Below are positions 12,700 to 53,191 of a stretch of DNA of 64,000 bases, piece after piece (positions within the stretch are counted from its first letter, which is position 1; each line of letters starts with the position of its first letter). A model generated the notes under the pieces. That model had not been told where the DNA came from and searched no databases. It was given only the letters and a program-made list of their open reading frames with translations. The DNA is from Desulfobacteraceae bacterium (GTDB lineage: Bacteria > Desulfobacterota > Desulfobacteria > Desulfobacterales > Desulfatirhabdiaceae), in contig JBBIWB010000011.1 in the NCBI GenBank assembly GCA_037439445.1, positions 6,671 through 70,670 of the forward strand, written 5' to 3'. Position numbers and translations under genes: made by a program.

Positions 12700-14019
12700 A
12701 TGCTTGAAGATATCATATCGTATGCCAATAATCTTGAGAGGGTTTTGGATAACCTTAAAGAAGGCATAATTGCTCATGATACTGAAAGACGCATTTTTTA
12801 TTTCAATCGGGAAGCTGAGAAAATAACTGGATTTTCCAGAAATGAAGTGATGGGAAAGGATTGCCATCTTGCCTTTGGCAAGCCTTTTTGCGGAAACAGA
12901 TGTGATTTCTGTAATGATAATCCCGTCCCTGGTGAAAAAGAAGAATATCTTACCCATATTCAGACCAGGAACGGAGATTTCAGGTGTATCGAAATGCGTG
13001 TTACTTCAATGAGAGACAATATCGGAAATCTTATTGGGGTGTTGGCTGCTTTCAGAGATGTGACTGGTTTGTTAAATCTTCAGTTAAAGGCTGAAAAACC
13101 GCAGGGGTTTGCCGACATCATTGGCCAGGATGCAAGAATGATTGAAATTTTCAACCAGATTCGAAACATTGCTGGTTATGATTATCCTGTTCATATTTCT
13201 GGTGAAACTGGAACAGGAAAAGAGCTGGTTGCAGCAGCACTTCACAGTGAAAGCCCCAGAAGAGGCGGACCATTTGTACCCATAAACTGCGGGGCACTTC
13301 CCGATGGCCTAATTGAAAGCGAGCTTTTCGGACATGTAAAAGGCGCTTTTACGGGTGCTATAAGGGACAAAAAAGGAAGGTTTGAACTTGCTGACGGCGG
13401 AACCGTTTTTCTTGATGAAGTGGCTGATCTTAGCAAGCCGGTTCAGGTGAAGCTTCTGAGGTTTCTTCAGGAAGGGGAGTTTGACAGGGTTGGGGGTGAA
13501 AAACCAGTTTCAGTAAATGTGAAGGTAACTAGTGCTACCAATAAGGATCTAAGGAAAGAAGTTGAGATGAACCGTTTCAGGGATGATCTTTACTATCGCC
13601 TGAATGTCATTCCCATTCATCTTCCTCCGTTAAGGGAGCGAAAAATCGACATTCCTCTCCTTGTTGAACATTTTTTGCAGGAAGCTGCCAAAAGAAACGG
13701 CCATAAACCCTTAAGGATTTCTAAAGACGCACTGTCTCTGTTTACAGCATATGGATGGCCGGGAAATGTCCGTGAGCTTCAAAATGCCATTCAGTATGCT
13801 GTTGTCAAATGCAGGGGAAACATCATCCTCCCTGAACACATTCCTTTTGAAATAGGCTACAGGAATCAACTGGAAAGACAGCAGGAAAATTCCGACAAAC
13901 TGAACGACTACATTGTGAAATCAGCTCTTGAGACGACAGGCGGGAACAAGGTAAAGGCTGCAAAATTTTTGGGTGTAAGCAGGGCAACTCTTTACAGGTA
14001 CTTCAAAAAAAATGTTTAA
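12700..14019 (+). CDS. Sigma-54-dependent transcriptional activator (PAS, AAA+, Fis-type HTH)
   Basis: PAS-like N-terminus, Walker A GETGTGKE, GAFTGA motif (GHVKGAFTGA), WPGNVRELQN, and a C-terminal HTH (AAKFLGVSRATLYRY). Confidence 0.9.
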   Translation: MLEDIISYANNLERVLDNLKEGIIAHDTERRIFYFNREAEKITGFSRNEVMGKDCHLAFGKPFCGNRCDFCNDNPVPGEKEEYLTHIQTRNGDFRCIEMRVTSMRDNIGNLIGVLAAFRDVTGLLNLQLKAEKPQGFADIIGQDARMIEIFNQIRNIAGYDYPVHISGETGTGKELVAAALHSESPRRGGPFVPINCGALPDGLIESELFGHVKGAFTGAIRDKKGRFELADGGTVFLDEVADLSKPVQVKLLRFLQEGEFDRVGGEKPVSVNVKVTSATNKDLRKEVEMNRFRDDLYYRLNVIPIHLPPLRERKIDIPLLVEHFLQEAAKRNGHKPLRISKDALSLFTAYGWPGNVRELQNAIQYAVVKCRGNIILPEHIPFEIGYRNQLERQQENSDKLNDYIVKSALETTGGNKVKAAKFLGVSRATLYRYFKKNV

Positions 14020-14995
14020 ATATTCAGGGAAAAGAGTCCTCATTACAGGTGGACTTGGTTTTATCGGATCAAATCTTGCCCGTCATCTTGTATCCGTATC
14101 AGCAGAAGTCACTCTTGCCGATAGTCTTATTCCCCAGTACGGCGGGAATCAGTTCAATATCCATGATTTCAAGGACAAGGTTTGCGTAAATGTCTGCGAT
14201 ATCCGGGATCCCCATGCCATGGCTTATCTGGTACAGGGCAAAGACTATATTTTTAACCTTGCTGGTCAGACCAGTCACATGGATTCCATGACAGACCCCC
14301 AGACAGACCTGGAAATAAATGCTAAGGCCCAGCTATCCATTCTTGAAGCTTGCCGCAAAACCAACCGCGATGTAAAAATAGTATTTGCCAGTACCCGCCA
14401 GCTTTACGGAAAACCTAAATACCTCCCTGTGGATGAAGCTCATCCTGTTGAGCCAGTAGATGTTAACGGAATCAACAAGCTTGCAGGTGAGTGGTATCAT
14501 CTTCTTTATAACAATGTCTATGGCATTTGCGCATGTGCTTTAAGGCTTACCAATACTTTCGGACCTGGAATGAGGGTAAGGGATGCTAGACAGACTTTTC
14601 TGGGTATCTGGGTTCGTAAGCTAATTGAAGGAAGTTCTATACAAGTATTCGGAGACGGCCTGCAGTTGCGCGATTTTAACTATGTGGATGACTGTGTTGA
14701 GGCCTTGCTCATGGCAGGTGAAAGTGATAATGCAAATGGCAGGGTATATAACCTTGGAAGCAAAGAGGTGATTTGCCTTAAAGACCTGGCAGAAAAAATG
14801 ACGAGCCTTGGTTACGGCGGCAGGTTTGAACTTGTTGCGTTTCCGCAGGATCGTAAGTCAATCGATATAGGAGACTACTATGGAGATTTTTCTTTGATAA
14901 GAAAGGAACTGGGCTGGTATCCCAGGATAGATCTGGAAGAAGGCCTGAGAAGAACTATTGACTATTACAGACTCCATCACCGTCATTACTGGTAA
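14012..14995 (+). CDS. Extended-SDR NAD-dependent sugar-nucleotide epimerase/dehydratase/decarboxylase-like protein
   Basis: Rossmann motif VLITGGLGFIGSNL and ASTRQLYG. The start overlaps the activator stop by 8 nt. The exact substrate cannot be assigned from sequence. Confidence 0.85.
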   Translation: MFKYSGKRVLITGGLGFIGSNLARHLVSVSAEVTLADSLIPQYGGNQFNIHDFKDKVCVNVCDIRDPHAMAYLVQGKDYIFNLAGQTSHMDSMTDPQTDLEINAKAQLSILEACRKTNRDVKIVFASTRQLYGKPKYLPVDEAHPVEPVDVNGINKLAGEWYHLLYNNVYGICACALRLTNTFGPGMRVRDARQTFLGIWVRKLIEGSSIQVFGDGLQLRDFNYVDDCVEALLMAGESDNANGRVYNLGSKEVICLKDLAEKMTSLGYGGRFELVAFPQDRKSIDIGDYYGDFSLIRKELGWYPRIDLEEGLRRTIDYYRLHHRHYW

Positions 14996-37117: not shown

Positions 37118-37190
37118 GGGCCCATAGCTCAGCTGGAAGAGCCACCGGCTCATAACCGGTCGGTCCCTGGTTCGAACCCAGGTGGGCCCA
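37118..37190 (+). tRNA. tRNA with CAT anticodon (elongator Met or lysidine-modified Ile2)
   Basis: Cloverleaf folded by hand. 7-bp acceptor stem GGGCCCA/TGGGCCC, D-arm AGCTCAGCTGGAAGAGC, anticodon stem-loop ACCGG-CTCATAA-CCGGT, T-arm CTGGTTCGAACCCAG, discriminator A. No encoded CCA. Confidence 0.9.
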
Positions 37191-39194: not shown

Positions 39195-39598
39195 GGCTGC
39201 AGCAGGACAGACGATCGCTGGATCGGTTTTTTGATCCCGGAGGAAAGTCCGAACACCACAGGGCAGGGTGCTCCTTAACGAGGAGTCGTGGCAACGCGAA
39301 GGAAAGTGCAACAGAAAATATACCGCTTTTTCATTCCGGTCCAGAAAGACCAGAATGAAAAAGTAAGGGTGAAATGGTGCGGTAAGAGCGCACCAGTTCT
39401 CCGGGTGACCGGAGAAGCTTGGTAAACCCCACCTGGTGCAAGACCAAATAGGGGAGCGTTTTAAGGCTGCCCGTCTTAAGCTCCCGGGTAGGTCGCAAGA
39501 GGCGTACTGGCAACAGTCGCCCTCAGATGAATGATCGTCACCCATATACCAGGTAACTGGTTATGGCTACAGAATTCGGCTTACGGACTGCTTCGGCC
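39195..39598 (+). ncRNA. rnpB: RNase P RNA, bacterial type A
   Basis: Conserved blocks GAGGAAAGTCCGAAC, AGGGCAGGGTGC, AGTGCAACAGAAA, GTAAGGGTGAAA-GGTGCGGTAAGAGCGCACC, GCAAGACCAAATAGGGG, AGATGAATGA and ACAGAATTCGGCTTA are collinear with E. coli M1 RNA. P1 pairing runs CTGCAGCAG (39197-39205) with CTGCTTCGG (39588-39596). The ends are approximate. Confidence 0.9.
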
Positions 39599-43060: not shown

Positions 43061-43765
43061 ATGTCTGTTTCAGCTATCATAGTTGCAGGTGGAAAAGGTT
43101 TCCGGATGGGCTCTGCCGTCAGCAAGCAATATATTGTGATTGCAGGCAAGCCTATTTTGCACCATACACTTGAAATATTCGATTCCTGTTCCTGTATTGA
43201 TGATATTTTTGTGGTTCTTCCTGCAGAAGACATGAACTGTTTTGAAAGACTCATTCCTCAAAAAACATTCAACAAAAAAATCCATCCTGTCAAGGGAGGG
43301 AAGGAGCGTCAAGATTCTGTTTATAACGGGATAATGGCAGTTCCTTACAAGAAATCACATGTAGTGATCCATGATGCAGTGCGACCTTTTGTAAGCCCTG
43401 GCATCATAACTGAATGTGTAAACAACGCTATCATTTCAGGAGCTTGTGTTGTCGGAGTCCCTGCTGTGGATACATTAAAACAGGTAAGTACTGCCGGTCA
43501 TATAGTCAATACAATCGATAGGGGCAGTATTTGGATGGCTCAAACCCCCCAGGTTTTTGATATTGACCTCATAAGGTATGCACATGAGAAGGCAAAAGAA
43601 GATAATGTTGCAGGAACAGATGATGCCATGCTGGTTGAGAGGATAGGCCGCAAAGTTAATATAATAGCAGGTACGAGATTAAATTTAAAAATTACAACAC
43701 CTGAAGATATATTATTTGCAGAGGCTTTATTTAAGAATCTTGAAAAAGCGAGGTCTCATTCATGA
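43061..43765 (+). CDS. ispD: 2-C-methyl-D-erythritol 4-phosphate cytidylyltransferase
   Basis: Contains IIVAGGKGFRMG..SKQY, VHDAVRPF, Q(T)PQ.F and TDDA motifs. Confidence 0.9.
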   Translation: MSVSAIIVAGGKGFRMGSAVSKQYIVIAGKPILHHTLEIFDSCSCIDDIFVVLPAEDMNCFERLIPQKTFNKKIHPVKGGKERQDSVYNGIMAVPYKKSHVVIHDAVRPFVSPGIITECVNNAIISGACVVGVPAVDTLKQVSTAGHIVNTIDRGSIWMAQTPQVFDIDLIRYAHEKAKEDNVAGTDDAMLVERIGRKVNIIAGTRLNLKITTPEDILFAEALFKNLEKARSHS

Positions 43766-45378
43766 ATCATACTGATATCAACCCGGACTCAAAGCAGCAA
43801 GACGATTTTATCAAAGACCTGAAAGCAACATTTGCAAAGATGCCAAATGATATCGATCTTATGCTATTTACCCAACAAGGCAGAGACGATGTGTTTGCAG
43901 AAGGTTGCAGGCAGATTGTAAGGGCTTTTCGGGAGCTGACGAATAGAATTCATTTCCGGGAATACGGCATGGATCATGAGATGGCGGTAAAATGGGAAAT
44001 TGAACACTCTCCAACCCTTCTGATAGCTCCTGAAAGATACAATATAAGGTGGATAGGCGCTCCGCTTGGTGAAGAAGTCAGAACATTTCTTGAAATCATG
44101 TTGATGGCAGGCTCAGGTAACAGCAATCTAAGCGATCAGTCCAGAAGAGTGCTGGAAAAGATTGATTCACCCCGTCAGATCAAGGTATTTGTTAGCCCGA
44201 CATGCCCTTATTGTCCTCAGGAAGCTGTTAATGCAGCAAGGGCTGTGATTGAAAAGCCCGGTCTCTTTTCTCTTGAAATCATAGATATACAGTGCAAACC
44301 TGAAATAGCAAGCCGGTATTCGGCAGAAAGTGTTCCACAGGCTTTTGCAAATGATGTACTGATAGGTTTGGGGGCTCAGCCTGAAGAAGTATTTGCGATA
44401 TCACTTGGCAAACTGGAGCCTCAGACGATATTTATTCCTGACAGCGATGCTGAGCTTGTTGAAGCTGATCTTCTCATCGCAGGAGGAGGGCCTGCAGGGC
44501 TTACTGCTGGAATTTATGCAGTAAGAAGTGGACTTAGTACTGTAATAATTGAACGCAATGCCCTTGGAGGGCAGGTGGCAACAACCCCTGTTGTTGAAAA
44601 CTACCCCGGATTCAAGCAGATCCCTGGGAAGACCCTTGTCGATATAATGGTTTCCCATGCTATTCAATATGTTCAGATTTTTCAGGGGGAAGAAGTCCTT
44701 GATGTTGTAATCGGCAAGCCTTTTGAAGTTATCACAAGCAGGCGACGGTTCAGGGTCAAGAGCATTCTTCTTGCAACAGGAGCAAACCATAAGCATTTGA
44801 ATGTTCCTGGTGAATCAAGGCTTTCAGGCAGAGGTGTAAGCTATTGCAGCACCTGCGATGGACCGCTTTTCAAGAACAGAAGGGTTGTAATGGTAGGAGG
44901 TGGAAACTCTGCAGTAACAGAAGCTCTTCACCTACACAATATGGGTGTCAAGGTAACTCTTGTCCACCGCAGAGACAGACTGCGTGCCCAGGATTTTCTG
45001 GTAAAACAGCTTGAATCAAGCGGTATTCCAGTTTTATTGAATTCTGAAATATCGGAAATTCTGGGTAAGAACAGGGTGGAGTCTGTAAAGCTGAGAAATA
45101 CTCTGGATAATAAGAGCTCTGATTTTTCAGTCGAAGGTGTTTTTATTGCTATAGGGTATGAACCTAGTGTTGATCTTGCCAGAAAAATCGGTGTTGCACT
45201 TACTCCTGATGGCTTTATTGAAAAGGATGAAAAGCATAGAACGAGTATTGCAGGAATCTATTCTGCAGGAGATGTTGAAGGAGGATACAAGCAGATAGTG
45301 ACTGCGGCAGGCCAGGGTTCAGAAGCAGCCATGTCCATTTTCGAGGATATAATTAATCCTTACTGGAACAGGGGCTGA
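43762..45378 (+). CDS. AhpF-like fusion: double thioredoxin-fold (PDO/glutaredoxin-like, CPYC) N-domain plus thioredoxin-disulfide reductase
   Basis: N-domain FVSPTCPYCPQ. The flavoprotein part has IAGGGPAGLTAG, the redox CSTCDG, GGGNSAVTEA and GDV motifs. 4-nt overlap with ispD. Confidence 0.85.
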   Translation: MNHTDINPDSKQQDDFIKDLKATFAKMPNDIDLMLFTQQGRDDVFAEGCRQIVRAFRELTNRIHFREYGMDHEMAVKWEIEHSPTLLIAPERYNIRWIGAPLGEEVRTFLEIMLMAGSGNSNLSDQSRRVLEKIDSPRQIKVFVSPTCPYCPQEAVNAARAVIEKPGLFSLEIIDIQCKPEIASRYSAESVPQAFANDVLIGLGAQPEEVFAISLGKLEPQTIFIPDSDAELVEADLLIAGGGPAGLTAGIYAVRSGLSTVIIERNALGGQVATTPVVENYPGFKQIPGKTLVDIMVSHAIQYVQIFQGEEVLDVVIGKPFEVITSRRRFRVKSILLATGANHKHLNVPGESRLSGRGVSYCSTCDGPLFKNRRVVMVGGGNSAVTEALHLHNMGVKVTLVHRRDRLRAQDFLVKQLESSGIPVLLNSEISEILGKNRVESVKLRNTLDNKSSDFSVEGVFIAIGYEPSVDLARKIGVALTPDGFIEKDEKHRTSIAGIYSAGDVEGGYKQIVTAAGQGSEAAMSIFEDIINPYWNRG

Positions 45379-45458: not shown

Positions 45459-45800
45459 GTGAGAAAAAGATTAAGGAAGAAACTGAATCTAGGAGAATTT
45501 AAGGAAACAGGTTTTGAGCTAACATGGAAATTTATTCAGGAACCTGAAGAACTTGATCTTGACAAGTTTATCGATGATTTTCTTGCTGCAATAGAAAACA
45601 GAGGGCTTGCCTTCGGAGGTGTTTTTTCCGTTGACGATTCCTGGCAGGGCATCATAGCAAGCAGCAAGAGGTATTCCTGTCCTGATGCCTCTGATAAGGA
45701 GTTTGTTTCAGATTGGTTTAAATCAAGAACAGACATCAAGGATTTTTTTATAAGCCATGACATCGATTTATGGTATCAATGCGAATGTTGTTCTGACTGA
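45459..45800 (+). CDS. yggL: YggL-family (DUF469) protein
   Basis: The N-terminus RKRLRKKLNLGEFKETGFEL and the ~113-aa size are typical of YggL. GTG start 7 nt after AAAGGA. Confidence 0.65.
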   Translation: MRKRLRKKLNLGEFKETGFELTWKFIQEPEELDLDKFIDDFLAAIENRGLAFGGVFSVDDSWQGIIASSKRYSCPDASDKEFVSDWFKSRTDIKDFFISHDIDLWYQCECCSD

Positions 45801-46704
45801 TGTATTTCCCTATGAGAAGATTAAGTTTTTGATGAGTTGCGGCAGATATCGCCCCATGGTCGGTTACAAGGGCTGGAGCCAAAGCGCAGGCGCAGGCGCA
45901 ATAGCGCTTTGGGGGCACCCTTCCGGCAGTTAAAAGTATTGCTTTTTTTGCAAAATCTATATTATTGCGCATTGTCGTTAAAATAGCTTCGACAGTCACA
46001 GTCTCATTGGTCTCATGCCAGCTATCGTAATCGGAAATGCAGGCTATGGAAGCGTAGCAGATTTCAGCCTCACGTGCAAGTTTGGCTTCAGGCAGCACTG
46101 TCATGCCTAAGACATCGGCACCCCAGGACTTGTAAAGACGCGATTCAGCCCTGGTTGAAAAGGCCGGGCCTTCCATCGCGATGAAGGTGCCGCCCTTATG
46201 GACTGTAGCTCCTGCCTCCTTGGCCGTCGCGTAGACTATATCACTTAGCACTTGACAGAATGGGTCTGCAAACTGGATATGGGCTACGATGTCGCCTCCA
46301 AAAAAGGTGCTGGCGCGCTGGCGGGTGCGATCTATAATCTGGTTGGGCACTATGAGGTGACCTGGCTTCAGCTCTTCTTTGAAGCTGCCGCAAGAGTTGG
46401 ATGAGATGATAAATTCCACGCCGAGCGCTTTCATTGCATATATATTGGCGCGGTAGGGCACATCAGCAGGTGAGAGGCTGTGGCCTTTGCCGTGGCGTGG
46501 TAGAAAAGCTATACCTACTCCGCCTGTCTTTCCTACCACTAAGGCATCTGATGGTTTCCCAAATGGTGTATAAGGCCTGATCTCTTTAACATCCATGAGG
46601 CCTTCGATATCATAGAGCCCTGTTCCGCCGATAATCCCGATTCTGACCTGACCATCCAGAGACTCTTCATAACTCTGGTTTACTTGCTGAGCTTCTATTT
46701 CCAT
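45748..46704 (-). CDS. mtnP: S-methyl-5'-thioadenosine phosphorylase
   Basis: Contains IGIIGGTGLY, FLPRHG.GH, SVGS-like (SNSCGS), GPAFST.AES..Y and GMT..PEA.LARE. Confidence 0.85.
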   Translation of the reverse strand: MEIEAQQVNQSYEESLDGQVRIGIIGGTGLYDIEGLMDVKEIRPYTPFGKPSDALVVGKTGGVGIAFLPRHGKGHSLSPADVPYRANIYAMKALGVEFIISSNSCGSFKEELKPGHLIVPNQIIDRTRQRASTFFGGDIVAHIQFADPFCQVLSDIVYATAKEAGATVHKGGTFIAMEGPAFSTRAESRLYKSWGADVLGMTVLPEAKLAREAEICYASIACISDYDSWHETNETVTVEAILTTMRNNIDFAKKAILLTAGRVPPKRYCACACALAPALVTDHGAISAATHQKLNLLIGKYISQNNIRIDTINRCHGL

Positions 46705-46837: not shown

Positions 46838-47359
46838 TCAGGTTTCCTGATGAATCTTCTGCATCCTGATCCCGGAATAAACAGCCCTGCAAATACCGCT
46901 TACACCGCCTTTGAGTCCTTCAGGGTTTTTGAAACCCTCGCTGCTCTGCAGGCTTGCCATGTAAGCAGTGGAGTCCTGAAGGTTCTCATAAGTCATACCG
47001 GCATGACCTCTGGGAGTTATTGCAAAAAGCCAGCCCCTGCTGTAAGTATCCTTGTTGATTAGCTCAGTATCTGCTCTGACTTCTGCATTGAAGTGAATGA
47101 CACCTTGAACAGGGGCATCAATGTAGAGAATCTTGCCAGTGATGGCAAAGAGTATGCACTGGTTCTGCTCAACAGTTTCTCCTTCTTCAGTAAGAAAGTT
47201 AAGTTCTTGAACTCCACCGGAAAGAACAATCGCAGGTTCGGAAAGACCAAAGAAGATGGCTTTCTTGTCCAGTCTTGCCCATAGTCCATGTTTTAATGAA
47301 TAACGGAGATTATCAGGGATAGTCACCCGATGCCCAAGAAATTTATCAATTACTGCCAT
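46838..47359 (-). CDS. GcvH-like (lipoyl/biotinyl hybrid-barrel) protein with ~45-aa C-terminal extension
   Basis: LRYSLKHGLWARLD...FFGLSEPAIVLSGGVQELNF...GETVEQNQCILFAITGKILYIDAPVQG follows the GcvH pattern (Y...HEW....VGIT..A...G.I...LP..G......VES.K....YAP.SG). AAGGAG RBS. Confidence 0.65.
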   Translation of the reverse strand: MAVIDKFLGHRVTIPDNLRYSLKHGLWARLDKKAIFFGLSEPAIVLSGGVQELNFLTEEGETVEQNQCILFAITGKILYIDAPVQGVIHFNAEVRADTELINKDTYSRGWLFAITPRGHAGMTYENLQDSTAYMASLQSSEGFKNPEGLKGGVSGICRAVYSGIRMQKIHQET

Positions 47360-47430
47360 TGCTTCTCCTTTAGTGCTAACCTCGGTTTTTTGACTATTTT
47401 AGGAATAAAAAACGAAGAAACAAAAGTCTT

Positions 47431-47763
47431 TCAGTGCTTTGATGCTCGCTTAGGGGAGAAAATCTTATCCCAAAGCCCCTTCTTTTTCGGCCCAGCAATT
47501 TTCAGGTGCCGGCAGATGGAATTTTCAATCCTGTCCTGTGAAATACCGGCACCTTCAACCACTATCTCATCAGCGACCATTACTGCAGGTGCAACAGGCA
47601 GATTCAGTTCAAAGTATTCATCATTCTGATATTCAGCGACTGGTTTGGACGTGATTTCGATATCTATATCCTTGTATCTTTTGCCCAGACCGGGCATCAT
47701 TTTCAGAAAATTCTTTCACGGCTTTCCATTAGGTTCATTCAGGAAAAATCTCACCTTCAGCAT
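47431..47763 (-). CDS. Small Trx-fold protein (redox-active disulfide protein 2 / Thioredoxin_3-like), candidate selenoprotein with in-frame TGA at codon 16
   Basis: The ATG at 47763 lies 6-7 nt after AAGGAG and 15 nt after the upstream gene's stop. Its frame reads MLKVRFFLNEPNGKP-TGA-KNFLKMMPGLGK... and is continuous with the 89-aa track ORF. The TGA (47716-47718) falls at the C-terminal Cys position of a Trx-fold CxxC site, and a hairpin lies downstream. Confidence 0.6.
47682..47696 (-). promoter_or_regulatory. SECIS-like stem-loop downstream of the in-frame UGA of the Trx-fold gene
   Basis: The mRNA reads U-GCCC-GGUCU-GGGC-A. The loop begins about 24 nt after the UGA. The GGUCU apical loop resembles the E. 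coli fdhF SECIS loop as I remember it. Confidence 0.45.
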
Positions 47764-47778
47764 TTTTTTCTCCTTTTT

Positions 47779-49530
47779 TTAGCTGCCTGTTTTCTTAAGC
47801 TCAGTCATACGGCCAATGAACTGATCCGGAGGGAGGTAATCCACCAGGCGCAGCTCCTGCTTTTCAATGCCGTCAGCATCCAAAAATACTATGGTTGGAA
47901 GGCCTTTGACTTGGTATTGCTGAAGCAGGCTGTCATTCAACGAATTCCCTCCGGTTGTGACATCAACTTTAATCATGACAAAGTCAGTATCAGCAAGCTT
48001 TACGACCATAGGATCGTGAAAAGTTACTTCTTCGATCTCAACGCATGCTGCGCACCATGAGGCATAGAAATCGATGATTACAGGCTTTTTAAGGTTTCTG
48101 GCCTCTTTAAGTGTTTCCTCTGAATAAGATTTCCAGTCAACTCCTTGTCCCTTCAAGGCCGATGATGTGATGATGACAGTGACCAAAACCAGACATGCTA
48201 TCCCTGCTGCGCCCTTAAGCAAGGGAAATGCCCTGAAGCTGGCACTGCTCTTGTCGATCCATCCAAGGTGTAAACCAGCAGCAAGTATGGCAAGGGCAAA
48301 CAGAAAGGTTCCAATGTGGCCGGGAAGAACTGGCCTTATGAAATGAACGGCCATTGCAACCAGAATCCAGCCCATGAGTTTTCTTACCCAGAGCATCCAA
48401 TCACCCGAGCGGGGCAGTTTTTTCAGTTGTCCGGAGAACAAGGCAAGGAAAAAGAGGGGCAGTCCCAGTCCAAGGCTCAGGGTAAAAAATATCACAAATC
48501 CGAGCCAGGGGCTTCCCATGCTTGCCACCCAGGTCAAAAGCCCCAGTACGAAAGGTCCGATGCAAGGGGCTGCTATCACTCCGAGGGTCAGCCCCATGAA
48601 GAGGCTTCCAAAGTAGCCAGTATATGATTTTGCAGCAGCCTGCGTAAGTCCGCTCGGAAGGTGCATTTCCCAAAACCCGAAGAGGCTTGTTGCAAAAAAG
48701 ACAAGAACCAACGCCACTACAATCAGGACAAAGGGATTCCGGAGCATCGATCCCATGAGGCCTCCTGTGAGCGAGGCTATTACCCCGAGTAAGGAGTTTG
48801 TAACCGAAAGACCCATAACGTAGCACAAACCGTGTGTTGCTAGCTTTCCATGTCCTTCTCCTTCCTTTGCAGCGTGGCCGCCGAAATAGGATATGGTAAT
48901 GGGAATAAGAGGGTAGATACAGGGGGTGAGGTTCAGGGCAATGCCGCCGACAAAAATACCAAGGAGTGTCAGGATCATTGCCCAGCCATAGAGCTGTCCA
49001 TATGCACTTGGAGATTCTATTGTCTTAGCCAGTCCTGCAGGAGTGCTGTCAACCGGCAGTCCCAGACTCTGCCATTCAGGAAAGCCGTATGGATCACGGT
49101 AGACGTTTTTATATCCGAGTTTTACAGCCACACGGGCTGCCGAGTCGCTGCGGGCTCAACTGAGACCCGCTCAATAGAAGATGACTGTGCGCTCCTTGTC
49201 CTGTCCCAGGATATTTTCAAGTGCCGAAGCCTTGTGCCATCTCGACCAGCCTGTTGGCTCCATGGGAAAGTTTACCGCACCCCTGATATGCCCTGTCCGG
49301 TATTCCCATTCCTGGCGGGTGTCCACCAGAAGAAGGCTGTCTGCATCTTTTTTATGGAGCTCCATGAGAGCTTCTGTGGTGATAATAGCATAGCCCCCGT
49401 TTTTGCCTTCGGTTAAAACATCGTCCCATGTGGATTGTCTGGGTGTAACTGCGCGATTTGTTAGCCACAGAGCTCCAACCGTCAGAAATATTGCCGCAAT
49501 AGCTATCAATGTCGTTTTTCTGTTCTGCAT
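47779..49530 (-). CDS. Signal-anchored rhodanese :: DsbD/CcdA transmembrane domain :: thioredoxin fusion, candidate selenoprotein with two in-frame TGA codons in the rhodanese active-site loop
   Basis: Track ORFs 49171..49530 and 47779..49131 are in the same frame and are separated only by TGA (49171-49173) and TGA (49156-49158). Read-through gives ...ERTVIFY-U-AGLS-U-ARSDSAARVAVKLGYKNVYRDPYGFPEW, a complete rhodanese domain. This is followed by 8 TM helices with LNLTPCIYP and IAAPCIGP, then FYASWCAAC. Confidence 0.6.
49125..49170 (-). promoter_or_regulatory. Stem-loops downstream of the rhodanese in-frame UGA codons (SECIS candidates)
   Basis: The mRNA hairpin GCGGG(U)CUC-AGUU-GAG-CCCGC (49150-49170) starts right after UGA-1 and contains UGA-2. 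A second hairpin, CAGCC-CGUGU-GGCUG (49125-49139), has its loop 21 nt after UGA-2 and 36 nt after UGA-1. Confidence 0.4.
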
Positions 49531-49566
49531 TATAAATCCTGTCCTGTCAAAAAAACTGTTCAGGTT

Positions 49567-49827
49567 CTATACTTTTCCTTCACGACTCAGTTTTGAAAGG
49601 AGAAACGTTGTCCCCCTCAGAGAAAGCCCTGTCTTTTCTGCGAGCTCTCCCGGATTGAGATGGCCGTGTTTTCTTAAGAGTGATATGAATTCATCTTCTA
49701 TTCCCCACAGAAACTCAGAACGCGTCTGATCACCCAGAGTCAGGAATAGCGTTTTCAATGCCATGGATATTTCATTAAGCGCTTCTTCAGGGTCCATGCT
49801 TCCAATTATTTTCTGAATCTCTTCCAT
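49567..49827 (-). CDS. Small hypothetical protein with HTH-like C-terminus
   Basis: 86 aa. The segment HLNPGELAEKTGLSLRGTTFLLSKLSREGKV looks like the HTH of ArsR/MarR-type winged-helix proteins, but the protein ends before a wing. Confidence 0.4.
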   Translation of the reverse strand: MEEIQKIIGSMDPEEALNEISMALKTLFLTLGDQTRSEFLWGIEDEFISLLRKHGHLNPGELAEKTGLSLRGTTFLLSKLSREGKV

Positions 49828-49851
49828 GCGGTTCAGAACCCTCTCTTATTC

Positions 49852-50184
49852 TCAAAAAGTTTTTCTTGCATTTAACAGGTCTGTTGCCATGGTGTTCAAC
49901 GTTTTAACTACATCAAGAATTCTATGATCTACCAATTCATAATAGATGAAGGGGCCATTTCGTTCAATATTCACCAGGAGTGAACGCTTGAGTTCCTTCA
50001 GGTGATGAGAAACAAGAGGCTGAGAGAGGCCGAGCTCCTCAACTATGCCTGAAACGGATTTCTTGCCGTTGCTCACACACAGTATTATCCTCAAGCGATT
50101 TTCATCAGAAAGGCTTTTTGCCAGAAAAGCAACTTTCTGAAAATGCTCATTGCACATCACCATTTCCTCCTGCTCAAAAAGCAT
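49852..50184 (-). CDS. ArsR/SmtB-family transcriptional regulator
   Basis: The pattern LSDENRLRIILCV...KSVSGIVEELGLSQPLVSHHLKELK...LV is the classic ArsR HTH. Confidence 0.85.
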   Translation of the reverse strand: MLFEQEEMVMCNEHFQKVAFLAKSLSDENRLRIILCVSNGKKSVSGIVEELGLSQPLVSHHLKELKRSLLVNIERNGPFIYYELVDHRILDVVKTLNTMATDLLNARKTF

Positions 50185-50261
50185 TCATCGCTCATTCCTG
50201 TTAAATCAATGCGGTTAAAGGCTTTACTCTGGATATTTTTCAGAAGGCATTCATCCAATAA

Positions 50262-50301
50262 ATGAAATAATATATTAATGAATATTTATATGTTATTTCA
50301 T
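50262..50301. promoter_or_regulatory. AT-rich inverted repeat upstream of the ArsR-led operon (candidate operator)
   Basis: ATGAAATAA (50262-50270) and TTATTTCAT (50293-50301) are perfect reverse complements. The spacer contains AATAT...ATATT symmetry. The repeat lies about 80-115 nt upstream of the ArsR start. Confidence 0.3.
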
Positions 50302-50532
50302 CGAATGTCAAGAAAAAATTGATGAACTGTAACAAGTCAGGAATTCAACAGCATCGCCTGCTGCTGCTACTTACCAGGCCGGCACTTCCCCATCCTGGAG
50401 AAACGACTTCTCTGACGGTCGTATTTTACTTATTGATCTTCTTGTTAAAGACTTTTTTTGTCACTAATTCCTGGTCTGTCCCCTCATCTTTTTTATATGG
50501 AGATCTGGGGCCTGAATCATTCTGCATTTTTT

Positions 50533-51183
50533 TCATAGGCTTTTCTGCAATGCCTTTGCAAAAGCAAGTGAGAGATCAGTGCTTGGATTATTTGACATGT
50601 ATTCTTTCAGGCCTGTTATATCGTCAATATCTGACATCTCAGGAAGGCATCCGTAATCTATACCCAGAAAGCTGGCTGTTCTTACAGTTTCTGTAAACAC
50701 TGTATCAGTACCCCAGGCAATGCCTTCAAACAGCTCGGGGTGAAACACGGACAAACCGACGAGATAGTATCCACCGTCAGAGGAAGGACCGAGCACAAGT
50801 TCAAAGTGTCCAAGAAGATCAAAAGCCTGTAATATGTCTGAAGATGAAATACCAGGACAATCCGTCCCTGTTAAGCATATCCTTGTGTATCCGCGGGCAA
50901 ATTCAGATTTAAAAGCCGCCGAAATTCTCTTGCCGAGATCCCCTTCCGGTTGATTCCTAATAACTGCAGAAGGCAGTATTGCCTCGAAGAACGCCAAGCT
51001 GCTTTCAGGTGTCTTGTATATAACAATATCGTAATGAGGCCAAGTCACCCCATCTATAACGTGATGAAGGATTAGATCATAGAGCAAGGCTGCTTTCTGA
51101 AAGCCGACATCTTTTGCAAGCCTTGTCTTAACCAGCCCTGGAACAGGTTCTCTTGCAAAAATAAGGAGAAGATCATTTTTCAT
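50533..51183 (-). CDS. DUF2064 / TIGR04282-type nucleotidyl/glycosyl-transferase-like protein (rSAM/selenodomain- or arsenosugar-associated 'transferase 1')
   Basis: The N-terminus LLLIFAREPVPGLVKTRLAKDVG is the DUF2064 hallmark. 4-nt overlap with the upstream GT2 gene. Confidence 0.8.
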   Translation of the reverse strand: MKNDLLLIFAREPVPGLVKTRLAKDVGFQKAALLYDLILHHVIDGVTWPHYDIVIYKTPESSLAFFEAILPSAVIRNQPEGDLGKRISAAFKSEFARGYTRICLTGTDCPGISSSDILQAFDLLGHFELVLGPSSDGGYYLVGLSVFHPELFEGIAWGTDTVFTETVRTASFLGIDYGCLPEMSDIDDITGLKEYMSNNPSTDLSLAFAKALQKSL

Positions 51184-51869
51184 CTTATATCCCTGTAAAG
51201 TCCTGCAAGATAATCAGGTGATACACCCAGCCTGAACAAGGAAGGTATTGCCAGCATCAGCAAAGTTGCGGTTATGATTCCATGCTTAAAGCGCCTGTAG
51301 GAAACATCAACAGTCTGTCTGGAATAGTATATTTTACCGATCCCAGATATTTTTCTTGAAAACTCAAAATCTTCCATTATGGGTATTTCCGGAAAACCTC
51401 TAACAGATTCAAAGGCTCTTTTTTCCACAAAGATTGCCTGATCGCCGTACATGTTTTTTGCATAACTGGATCGCAAACTGGACAAAAAGGCAAAAAAACG
51501 CTCATGTCTTCCGAGAGTTTCATGTCTGCCGCATCTGATCCTGAATCCGCCTGCGACACAGCCACTTTCAATTGCCTTCTCGACCTCTTTTTTCCATCCC
51601 TCAGGAAGTTCAGCATCGGCATGCAGGAACAAAAGAACATCGCCTTTTGCAAAAGAAGCTCCAAAATTCATCTGGACTCCTCTGCCCTTACTTGGAGACT
51701 GCAGAAGCATCACGTCTCCATGAGCCTCTATGATGCAGGCAGTCCGGTCAGAGCTTCTGCAGTCAACAGCTATAACTTCGGTCTCGGGGTCTGTTACTGC
51801 CGCAAGACGTCTAAGCTGTTCTTCTATTATCTTTTCTTCGTTGTAAACTGGTATTATTATAGAGACCAT
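51180..51869 (-). CDS. GT2 glycosyltransferase, TIGR04283-type (rSAM/selenodomain- or arsenosugar-associated 'transferase 2')
   Basis: Contains VSIIIPVYNEE, VIAVDCRSSDRT and LFLHADAELP. Located immediately downstream of the radical SAM gene. Confidence 0.8.
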   Translation of the reverse strand: MVSIIIPVYNEEKIIEEQLRRLAAVTDPETEVIAVDCRSSDRTACIIEAHGDVMLLQSPSKGRGVQMNFGASFAKGDVLLFLHADAELPEGWKKEVEKAIESGCVAGGFRIRCGRHETLGRHERFFAFLSSLRSSYAKNMYGDQAIFVEKRAFESVRGFPEIPIMEDFEFSRKISGIGKIYYSRQTVDVSYRRFKHGIITATLLMLAIPSLFRLGVSPDYLAGLYRDIR

Positions 51870-51873
51870 CAAA

Positions 51874-52854
51874 CTATTCCAGCGATCCCTGGCATGACGA
51901 ACCAGTGCCTGCTGTACATCCGTAGCAATGGTTATGGAGCACTATAGGGCGGTTTCCAAGCTGTTTTAAGTCAAAATTTTCTATATGTCCGGAGGAGGAT
52001 ACTCTAAGACCAAGCATTTGGTTAAAATCGCAGTCATGTAAGGTTCCGTCCCAGGCCACCGAAACCGTTGTTCTGCACATCACGCTTTTAAGTGTATCGG
52101 GATTGAAAGCATCAGTTAATGTCTGCATGTATTCGTCATAATTGCCTGAAGCAAGAAGAAAATCAAGATATCTGCCAACTGGCATGTTGTTCAGGCAATA
52201 GAGTGTATTGAAATCAATGCCGTGAAATTTCCAGAGCCTTGTGCGGTAATCCTGCTCAAGGCTCTTCTGGGAAGCAGGCAGATACGCACCTACCGGGTTA
52301 TGAACGAGGTTGAATAGAAGTCCGGTTCCTGGCTTTGCGTATCCCATTGAGTTAAGCCTTTTGGCAACCCGGATAAATTTTCTGAAGAAACCAGCGCCTC
52401 GCTGGCGGTCGGCTCTTGACTCGTTGCAGTCCGGCAGAGAAGACACGATCTCAATGCCGTTATCAGCGTAGATATTGGCGTAATCAGCGTAATCTTCATC
52501 TTCAAGTATGACCAGGTTTGATCTCACAATCAGGCGGCGCCCCAGCTTTGCTGCCTCCTTAATGAAGACCTTGATACCGGAATTCATCTCAGGGGCTCCG
52601 CCTGTTATATCTATCGTGGTGATTGTTCTGTTTCCCCTTATAACTTCGAGACACAGTTCCAGAACGTCTCCTGGCATCATCTCTTTTCTCTCATTGCCTG
52701 CTTCGACATGGCAGTGTTTGCAGGATAGGTTGCAGCGCTTCCCGACATTTAACTGAAGTATTTCCACTCCTGATGCAAACATTGGCCCGTGCAGTTTTCT
52801 GTTGAAACTTGTATTATATTTTTCGAGCACGGCGAGTTGATAGTTGTCCTGCAT
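51874..52854 (-). CDS. Radical SAM / Cys-rich C-terminal domain protein (ArsS-type, TIGR04167-like)
   Basis: Radical SAM cluster motif GKRCNLSCKHCHVEAG. C-terminal Cys-rich tail NHCYGCTAGTGSSCQG. In some members of this family the tail Cys positions are selenocysteine (recalled family description). Confidence 0.85.
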   Translation of the reverse strand: MQDNYQLAVLEKYNTSFNRKLHGPMFASGVEILQLNVGKRCNLSCKHCHVEAGNERKEMMPGDVLELCLEVIRGNRTITTIDITGGAPEMNSGIKVFIKEAAKLGRRLIVRSNLVILEDEDYADYANIYADNGIEIVSSLPDCNESRADRQRGAGFFRKFIRVAKRLNSMGYAKPGTGLLFNLVHNPVGAYLPASQKSLEQDYRTRLWKFHGIDFNTLYCLNNMPVGRYLDFLLASGNYDEYMQTLTDAFNPDTLKSVMCRTTVSVAWDGTLHDCDFNQMLGLRVSSSGHIENFDLKQLGNRPIVLHNHCYGCTAGTGSSCQGSLE

Positions 52855-52855
52855 A

Positions 52856-53191
52856 TTACAAGGCCTTTTTCTTGATTATCTTTCTCATCTGTGTCGAGTG
52901 GGCGAGTGTAATGCCTGCCATCATGGCAGCACCAACATGCACGGCTTCCATCATTTCATCTTCTCCTATCCCAAGAGAAAGGCACTTGTTGGTATAGGCG
53001 TCGATACAGTAAGGACAGCTCTGTGTCATGGCAACGGCTATGGCTATAAGCGCCTTTTCGCGTTCGTTCAGCTTCCCTGCTGAAGTTGATGCCATGTAAT
53101 AATCGAAAAACTTATGTCCCTGTTCCTTGGCATATTCGGTTATGTTTGGAAAATCAGCAAGATCCCCGGGTTCATAATAATTTTGCTTCAT
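52856..53191 (-). CDS. Carboxymuconolactone decarboxylase (AhpD-like) family peroxidase-like protein
   Basis: 111 aa with the CMD-family redox motif QSCPYCIDAY. It abuts the radical SAM gene with a 1-nt gap. Confidence 0.85.
   Translation of the reverse strand: MKQNYYEPGDLADFPNITEYAKEQGHKFFDYYMASTSAGKLNEREKALIAIAVAMTQSCPYCIDAYTNKCLSLGIGEDEMMEAVHVGAAMMAGITLAHSTQMRKIIKKKAL

Follow-up and report, generated by a model that had tools for sequence, protein, structure and literature searches.

A copy of the Tso selenoprotein operon with a shortened tsoA gene in a Desulfobacteraceae bacterium

The Tso operon and its genes

The window analysed here, a 64-kb stretch (64,000 nucleotides) of contig JBBIWB010000011.1 from the Desulfobacteraceae bacterium assembly GCA_037439445.1, carries five co-oriented and closely packed open reading frames (ORFs) on its minus strand, which together span positions 46838-50184. 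Family-model scores and gene order show that these genes represent a copy of the Tso operon, a system of sulfate-reducing bacteria in the Desulfobacterota, made up of tsoR, tsoA, tsoB and tsoC together with a recurrent accessory gene for a GcvH-related protein. The genes, which were named by scoring NCBIfam models against curated cut-offs, are listed below in the order in which they are read.

49852-50184, minus strand: tsoR, 110 amino acids (aa); ArsR/SmtB-family winged-helix regulator; NF045707, 170.7 bits (cut-off 115); Pfam HTH_5
49567-49827, minus strand: tsoA remnant, 86 aa; partial match to NF045695, 65.8 bits (cut-off 170); Pfam HTH_24
47779-49530, minus strand: tsoB, 583 aa with two selenocysteines (Sec, U); NF045694, 963.1 bits (cut-off 805); Pfam Rhodanese, DsbD_TM and Thioredoxin_7
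47431-47763, minus strand: tsoC, 110 aa with one Sec in NEPNGKP-U; NF045708, 136.4 bits (cut-off 45)
46838-47359, minus strand: GcvH-related gene, 173 aa; NF045810 (GcvH_rel_desulf), 237.5 bits (cut-off 150); Pfam GCV_H, 38 bits

Three of the models are labelled 'rhodanese/DsbD fusion-like selenoprotein' (NF045694), 'LULAXC motif selenoprotein' (NF045695) and 'NEPxGxxU motif selenoprotein' (NF045708). Gaps of 24, 36, 15 and 71 nt separate the five genes, and an AAGGAG motif lies upstream of both tsoC and the GcvH-related gene. This minus-strand cluster had been described in an earlier note made from the sequence alone, and its coordinates, gaps and AAGGAG sites were all reproduced from the ORFs and the sequence. 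The gene identities proposed there (ArsR, helix-turn-helix [HTH], rhodanese-DsbD-thioredoxin [Trx] and GcvH-like) agree with the Pfam matches to HTH_5, to HTH_24, to Rhodanese, DsbD_TM and Thioredoxin_7, and to GCV_H, respectively. A Pfam scan of the 110-aa TsoC gave no match.

The same note could name no described system of this composition and took the module to be undescribed, which is incorrect because NCBIfam and the literature already name the Tso operon: five models (NF045707, NF045695, NF045694, NF045708 and NF045810) cover it, as does a 2026 review (PMC13188914). Tso stands for 'three selenoprotein operon' (Haft and Tolstoy 2025, mSystems 10:e0141724), and the review lists TsoA (LULAxC, one Sec), TsoB (UxxxxU, two Sec) and TsoC (GxxU). 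The locus in the window has the same gene order, the regulator, the U-X4-U rhodanese/DsbD fusion and the NEPxGxxU protein; the models for TsoR, TsoB and TsoC, three of the four, exceed their curated cut-offs here, and the taxonomic range, Desulfobacterota, is alike. The locus differs from the described system in that its TsoA lacks the LULAxC Sec core through a 63-codon deletion, which leaves two selenoprotein genes and not three. Two further differences are the presence of the GcvH-related gene (NF045810), which is found in about a third of loci, and the absence of the VTT/DedA gene that comes after tsoC in 12 other loci. Neither TsoX nor TsoY was found in the 64-kb window, and a search there for the TsoX motif gave nothing. 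Because a bioinformatic description of the module dates from 2025 and NCBI annotation models recognise it, its discovery value is small; the module itself is already known, and what is new in this window is the deletion of the tsoA core. The system is an unusual one, in which a DsbD-type reductase is fused to a double-selenocysteine rhodanese and accompanied by two further small selenoproteins.

The earlier note had proposed a survey of gene-neighbourhood conservation. When a single genome for each GTDB species was scanned, 33 loci were obtained, all from metagenome-assembled genomes (MAGs) of Desulfobacterota except for one isolate (Desulforhopalus sp. IMCC35007, L022), and synteny among them was assessed by tblastn and ORF clustering. 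Desulfomicrobium baculatum is a further cultured candidate carrier, an NCBIfam model name referring to its Dbac_1936. The order TsoR-TsoA-TsoB-TsoC recurs in ~17 independent Desulfobacterota loci, and on this comparative evidence the five-gene arrangement is not due to chance. Specifically, tsoC adjoins in 15 of the 19 loci having enough downstream sequence, and the GcvH-related gene adjoins tsoB or tsoC, either between the two or after tsoC, in 7 of 19 (the window counted). Five loci have a second TsoC paralog.

Loss of the tsoA Sec core and recoding in tsoB and tsoC

Canonical TsoA is ~147-150 aa long and reads EFLW-(N/G)LMGES..DKVSSLVHL-U-LAECMGEGVDPTQMCQ, then FEDW(F/L)EELE-EE(I/F)ISL, then a winged HTH (wHTH). 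In the window, the N-terminal helices lead directly into the C-terminal wHTH, with SEFLWG followed at once by IEDEFISLL. The 63 codons encoding the LULAEC Sec core are missing, and alignment with another tso locus (L001) shows a clean 189-nt in-frame gap. The deletion junction lies at 49699/49700 on the minus strand and has 2 nt of microhomology; the start codon, the stop codon and the wHTH are all kept. The LULAxC motif is absent from the protein, and the NF045695 score is low (65.8 vs 170 bits). What the earlier note called a small HTH-like protein does have an HTH_24 match, but the gene is actually that of the selenoprotein TsoA with an internal in-frame deletion.

Intact tsoA (VHL-TGA-LAECMGEGVDPTQMC) is present in three close relatives, L035 (Logan SRR11582139), L036 (NCBI GCA_037442145.1) and L037, which are 99.0-99.8% identical to the window at the nucleotide level over 2-10 kb and have the same flanks, namely the ArsS cluster, a histidine kinase and S-methyl-5'-thioadenosine phosphorylase (MTAP). 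These intact-tsoA contigs stem from one run series (SRR11582139, SRR11582140 and GCA_037442145.1). A fourth relative, L034 (Logan SRR11582157), is 99.95% identical to the window and carries the identical deletion. No second tsoA copy was found in the 64-kb window. An assembly artefact was considered as the source of the deletion and judged unlikely: there is no repeat at the junction, the deletion is in frame, and its junction is shared by the L034 assembly and the 72-kb NCBI contig. Judged from these alignments, the Sec core of tsoA was lost in frame and very recently, at the level of strains.

The TsoA family comprises 1057 clusters at 90% identity, and the TGA position is present in all 20 full-length TsoA sequences inspected, where gene callers render it as W. 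The AlphaFold2 (AF2) model of TsoA is all-helical, with a predicted local distance difference test score (pLDDT) below 50 for residues 47-90, the core that is deleted here, and a predicted template modelling score (pTM) of 0.41; given the low confidence in the core, the model was used neither for fold search nor for mechanism.

Because tsoA has lost its Sec core, only two selenoproteins are left in the operon, TsoB with two Sec and TsoC with one. The positions of their TGA codons and of the associated selenocysteine insertion sequence (SECIS) elements are as follows.

49171-49173 (UGA1) and 49156-49158 (UGA2), minus strand: TGA codons of tsoB, in the loop FY-U-AGLS-U-ARS
49115-49174, minus strand: tsoB SECIS-like region; outer helix including UGA1, and hairpins H1 and H2 (RNAalifold consensus, n = 23)
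49142-49157, minus strand: hairpin H1; begins 13 nt past UGA1, with its 5' arm beginning within UGA2
49124-49140, minus strand: hairpin H2; begins 15 nt past UGA2; loop CGUGU in the window, consensus CG(G/U)GU
47716-47718, minus strand: TGA codon of tsoC, in NEPNGKP*KNF
47683-47695, minus strand: tsoC SECIS hairpin, GCCC-GGUCU-GGGC, 20 nt past the UGA

Read through its TGA codons, tsoB gives VIFY*AGLS*ARSDSAARVAV. The active-site loop of the Sec-rhodanese of the earlier note holds two in-frame TGAs, of which one had been overlooked. Both are conserved in 26 of 26 loci. The TGA of tsoC is conserved in 20 sequences, and TsoC has genuine Cys homologs (P0041, P0047, P0099 and P0116). Among the 23 sequences folded with RNAalifold, pair 42-54 of H2 covaries (A-U in 12, G-C in 10 and one A.C mismatch). 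The tsoC hairpin, folded from 15 sequences, has 6 bp and a GGU-type loop (the form GCCCA-GGU-UGGGC), and four pair types occur at its pair 27-39 (GC in nine, UA in three, CG in two and AU in one). Another hairpin, located right after UGA1 (GCGGG-U-CUC/GAG-CCCGC), was rejected as a SECIS element: it is strong in the window and is not conserved across loci. An Rfam search gave no match in the operon region, and neither sel genes nor tRNA-Sec were found in the 64-kb window.

Taken together, codon conservation, hairpins and Cys homologs identify the TGAs in tsoB and tsoC as Sec codons, as the earlier note had supposed. The opposite reading, in which the genes with in-frame TGAs would be pseudogenes in decay and the whole cluster non-functional in this strain, can point to the loss of the tsoA core, to a decayed tsoB/tsoC copy in another MAG and to a C.A mismatch in H1 of the window, which results from a Val-to-Ala codon change. 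Against it, tsoB (583 codons) and tsoC (110 codons) are uninterrupted except at the conserved TGAs, both genes have SECIS hairpins and share 99.4-99.6% identity with their copies in the intact-tsoA strains, and the tsoA deletion is in frame with start, stop and wHTH retained. We reject the pseudogene reading on the conserved TGAs, the intact frames and the SECIS hairpins, and regard it as extremely improbable.

The decayed copy is a second locus in a Desulfosudis oleivorans MAG (L031, 7900-9000), in which the rhodanese is joined straight to the Trx domain and the membrane core is gone; a tsoC-like frame after this tsoB is broken by stops.

TsoB, TsoR and the cytoplasmic partners

TsoB begins with an N-in membrane anchor (residues 6-24, from hydropathy and charge), which is followed by a predicted periplasmic rhodanese with U120-AGLS-U125 (residues 25-183; PF00581, 59.5 bits), an eight-helix DsbD core with cysteines in LTPCIYP and AAPCIGP (residues 184-459; DsbD_TM PF02683, 140 bits) and a predicted periplasmic Trx-like domain with WCAAC (residues 465-583; PF13899, 59.8 bits). 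These domain hits and the predicted topology match the periplasmic Sec-rhodanese, joined to a membrane core of the DsbD type and a Trx domain, that the earlier note had proposed. The DsbD model PRK00293 aligns only to residues 185-579, corresponding to the beta and gamma domains (247.6 bits, below the cut-off of 330), and the Ig-like alpha domain of DsbD is absent, residues 25-183 being the rhodanese. By these matches, TsoB has the alpha-beta-gamma layout of DsbD with a rhodanese instead of alpha. It shares with the Escherichia coli protein-disulfide reductase DsbD the eight-helix core, two essential-type cysteines, the C-terminal periplasmic Trx-like CxxC domain and an N-terminal periplasmic acceptor domain with a closely spaced redox pair. 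Unlike DsbD, it has a rhodanese with two selenocysteines in place of the Ig-like domain, and its N-terminus is an uncleaved-looking membrane anchor with the acceptor fused in.

Aligned with solved rhodaneses (FYCAGG--LRS), the first Sec (U1) falls on the catalytic Cys, which in rhodanese sulfurtransferases opens a six-residue loop, and the second (U2) lies inside a 2-residue loop insertion. TsoB resembles single-domain periplasmic rhodaneses (E. coli PspE and Wolinella Sud) and selenoprotein rhodaneses (the 'forms 1-4' of the review, NF041203) in its fold, in the position of its first Sec at the catalytic Cys and in an extracytoplasmic location, which for TsoB is predicted; it differs from them in having a loop longer by two residues, a second Sec inside that loop and a reductase of its own fused to it. 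With the 95 residues before UGA1 as query, a search of 1.84 billion representatives returned 288 relatives, most of which stop exactly at the first TGA and others at YCR(S/N)FR. One of the latter (L038, 598-1150; ENA ERZ16299723) has the loop FYC-RSFR-TGA-VRS at the DNA level, that is, C-X4-U. Since many database relatives end where this sequence has its TGA, a wider, unannotated group of C-X4-U selenoprotein rhodaneses is implied. C-X4-C loop forms are found in P0344 and L030. Stand-alone rhodaneses with U-AGLA-U, which are ~165 aa long and membrane-anchored and lack the DsbD part, occur in L028 (7938-8440), L029, L030 and L032; they adjoin PstS-like ABC transporter genes in L028, L029 and L032, and L030 additionally has a Cys paralog with FYC-GFTK-C-TRS. 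Across the homologs compared, the [C/U]-X4-[C/U]-x-R-S loop is a family hallmark, and its recurrence fits an intramolecular dichalcogenide couple.

Upstream of tsoR lies a palindrome that we consider a candidate binding site for the regulator.

50270-50293, minus strand: putative TsoR operator, palindrome ACATATAAAT-N4-ATTAATATAT; consensus ACATATAAAT-N4-ATTTATATGT; two mismatches in the window

Allowing at most 4 mismatches in 20 positions, the palindrome is found upstream of tsoR in 14 of the 17 independent loci with upstream sequence, usually ~105-240 nt before the conserved core; the window has it too, as do the near-identical copies. No other site occurs in the 64-kb window, and no match appeared in three shuffles of 528 kb. 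The palindrome overlaps a sigma-70-like promoter (TTGACA at ~50307-50312, with -10-like hexamers within 50267-50296), and no minus-strand terminator-like site was found inside the operon. The operon genes would be transcribed from this single promoter upstream of tsoR, with the conserved 10-4-10 palindrome over it as the presumed TsoR operator. In the genome of L020, a TauE/SafE gene (13158-14147, minus strand) located ~3 kb downstream of tsoC is immediately preceded by a second TsoR-type palindrome (13046-13075), which suggests that TauE belongs to the TsoR regulon there.

The earlier note had taken the regulator for an ArsR-type metalloid sensor. TsoR shares the ArsR-type wHTH with the ArsR/SmtB metalloregulators but has Ser-Val-Ser in place of Cys-Val-Cys, the As(III) site of R773 ArsR, and it is without an alpha5 site. 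Only 6 of the 18 orthologs have Cys36, an alpha5-type His/Asp set is not conserved, and no Cys/His ligand set is kept across the 18 orthologs. The ligand sets looked for were Cys-Val-Cys in alpha3, an alpha3N or alpha5 site and the Cys pair of BigR, and TsoR showed none of them. Direct metalloid sensing by TsoR is therefore unsupported. A farther-reaching hypothesis would make TsoA, with U-x3-C-x9-C before its wHTH, a selenocysteine-based sensor or co-regulator that works with a ligand-less TsoR, and Tso a selenol relay across the envelope, reducing or capturing a chalcogen or metalloid species outside the cytoplasm; we rate this combination as very unlikely. If true, TsoA would be the first Sec-dependent transcription factor, and the co-occurring strains with deleted and intact tsoA (99.4-99.6% nucleotide identity) would form a natural regulatory mutant pair, usable in metatranscriptomes of one sample series.

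The best explanation of the locus as a whole, which we consider on balance probable, is that it is a Tso copy with a tsoA core deletion, a TsoR-controlled transcript and a DsbD-type relay that keeps a periplasmic U-X4-U rhodanese reduced. TsoB would act in the manner of DsbD, with the rhodanese domain standing in for the alpha domain: cytoplasmic reducing equivalents would pass through the two core cysteines across the membrane to the periplasmic WCAAC, and from there to U-X4-U in the expanded rhodanese loop. In the oxidising periplasm, this pair would be kept reduced, or regenerated from either a diselenide or an adduct with the substrate, and would act as a selenol pair on a chalcogen or metalloid species outside the cytoplasm; our best guess is sulfane sulfur or a selenium species. 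TsoC, intact TsoA and the GcvH-related protein would be cytoplasmic partners with one reactive Sec/Cys site each, and are more likely to be carriers or sensors than the two-electron donor.

The earlier note assigned the donor role to TsoC, as a cytoplasmic seleno-thioredoxin passing electrons through the TsoB core to the periplasmic Sec-rhodanese, with the GcvH-like protein as a lipoyl-type carrier and the ArsR protein sensing a metalloid. Several observations agree with the first part of this scheme. TsoC has no signal peptide, tsoC follows tsoB directly in 15 of 19 loci, and the predicted topology of TsoB suits such a flow. A Trx-like fold of TsoC is moderately well supported by the AF2 model of its Cys homolog P0041 (pLDDT 77), which has the order beta-alpha-beta-alpha-beta-beta-alpha, the Sec/Cys at the N-terminal end of helix 1, in the second-Cys position of CxxC, and an LPVAPA loop preceding strand 3. 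Its top Foldseek matches are ArsD, SA0789 and many thioredoxins (template modelling [TM] score ~0.5, probability 0.9-0.99). The role of donor fits less well: Sec is the only conserved redox residue of TsoC, and a second Cys is missing in about a third of the orthologs (the 'ICR' Cys is absent in L008, L010, L014, L017, L020 and some paralogs, and position 83 is only 'nearly invariant'). In place of a CxxC dithiol site, TsoC has G-K-P-U, with a redox residue at the second position only, and because of this single residue it cannot by itself carry out dithiol-disulfide exchange. Three tso loci have no adjacent tsoC, and known DsbD-family proteins are served by the housekeeping thioredoxin. TsoC is accordingly a weak candidate electron donor, the housekeeping thioredoxin being the more likely one.

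As to the remaining parts of the scheme, TsoR has neither the Cys-Val-Cys site nor a conserved Cys/His set, and the swinging-arm carrier role proposed for the GcvH-related protein is not supported. Over residues 13-138, it has the GCV_H fold of the GcvH/LbpA lipoyl carriers and aligns to E. coli GcvH without gaps, but its invariant ITGK Lys lies one residue after the lipoyl-Lys and is thus out of register with it. GcvH equivalog models give it 44 bits against a cut-off of 117, and, unlike those carriers, it has a 35-residue C-terminal extension with an invariant Cys, in the invariant tail KGGVSGIC(K/R)AVY. We consider a relay of this composition quite unlikely.

Genomic surroundings and alternative chemistry

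Several further genes recur at the tso loci of other genomes.

VTT/DedA-family membrane protein, directly after tsoC: 12 loci
TauE/SafE: about 6 loci
Divergent Hcp/FeS/HD genes: 5-6 loci
FA_hydroxylase: 4 loci
TusE/DsrC-like: 4 loci
S-adenosylmethionine (SAM) methyltransferase with weak similarity to ArsM: 3 loci
DsrE: 3 loci

None of these neighbours is present in the 64-kb window. Among them, VTT/DedA (12 loci), TauE/SafE, TusE/DsrC-like and DsrE point to a chalcogen theme at other tso loci, in line with the DsbD-type relay proposed above. Next to the operon in the window there is a different set of genes.

50533-53191, minus strand: ArsS arsenosugar-type cluster; peroxidase-like protein (TIGR04169), radical SAM protein ArsS (TIGR04167, 401.7 bits) and glycosyltransferases (TIGR04283 and TIGR04282)

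The ArsS of the window is the Cys form, with the stop codon TAG. The earlier note saw in this radical-SAM neighbour support for a metalloid or chalcogen theme. No ArsS cluster occurs within 8 kb at any of the 22 other tso loci, and it stands beside tso only in this species and its near-identical (99%) relatives. A functional tie to the cluster as a conserved feature was therefore rejected, and the adjacency, being so confined, adds no functional evidence.

The surroundings also bear on a different chemistry, soft-metal or metalloid handling, in which the U-X4-U loop, the Sec of TsoC and the U/C/C cluster of TsoA would be ligands for As(III), Sb, Hg, Te or similar; TsoC would be an ArsD-like metallochaperone, and the expanded rhodanese loop a Cdc25/Acr2-type oxyanion reductase. 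ArsD (3kgk) is the top Foldseek match of the TsoC model (E 0.013, TM 0.51-0.55), and TsoC shares with this metallochaperone the Trx-like fold and the position of the reactive loop, the beta1-alpha1 loop, which holds the binding cysteines in ArsD. The match is, however, barely above those to ordinary thioredoxins and comes from a moderately confident model; the likeness is at the level of the fold only (11% identity), and TsoC has one Sec vs the three cysteines of ArsD. The rhodanese loop exceeds the sulfurtransferase type, Cdc25 phosphatases are among its sequence matches, and stand-alone U-X4-U rhodaneses stand beside PstS-like oxyanion ABC transporters. The weakly ArsM-like SAM methyltransferase in three tso loci and the ArsS arsenosugar cluster adjacent in this species would also suit metalloid handling, but the latter adjacency is not conserved, and no ars, mer or efflux genes recur at tso loci, whereas sulfur-relay genes do. 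A full DsbD beta plus gamma module is, moreover, hard to square with pure binding. We consider metalloid handling unlikely as the role of the system.

The preferred explanation, a DsbD-type relay that keeps the U-X4-U rhodanese reduced, has points against it as well. Diselenides are reduced much less readily than disulfides, and for this reason reduction of U-X4-U by a CxxC Trx domain is not assured; the pair could be a ligand site and not a redox couple. A two-residue couple is also not universal, because a 591-aa rhodanese-DsbD-Trx fusion without Sec (P0349; L039, 6001-7776) has the loop FY-G-ADLS-C-DRS (G-X4-C) and retains only the second loop position, as Cys; its gene is not beside tsoR, tsoA or tsoC, and a response regulator comes next. 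The C.A mismatch in H1 and the absence from the window of the accessory transporter and sulfur-relay genes of other tso loci weigh on the same side, and the review (PMC13188914) gives the function of Tso as unknown. For experimenters, the locus offers several handles: the candidate TsoR operator, a tandem SECIS for two UGAs at a spacing of 15 nt, the [C/U]-X4-[C/U] hallmark, evidence that TsoR has no ligand site of its own, and a natural in-frame deletion of the tsoA core beside near-identical strains.

Other genes lie on the downstream side of the operon. The MTAP gene (45748-46704, minus strand) begins 133 nt downstream of the GcvH-related gene and may be co-transcribed with the operon, since it is on the same strand and there is no terminator-like site in between. 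About 1.5 kb from the operon end, a gene at 43762-45378 (plus strand) encodes a 538-aa fusion of Thioredoxin_3 and an FAD pyridine-nucleotide-disulfide oxidoreductase (Pfam), which could be a cytoplasmic reductase; an identical gene is present in L034 and L036. Farther away, the window contains a tRNA-Met (37118-37190, plus strand) and a bacterial class A RNase P RNA (39199-39598, plus strand; 300 bits).

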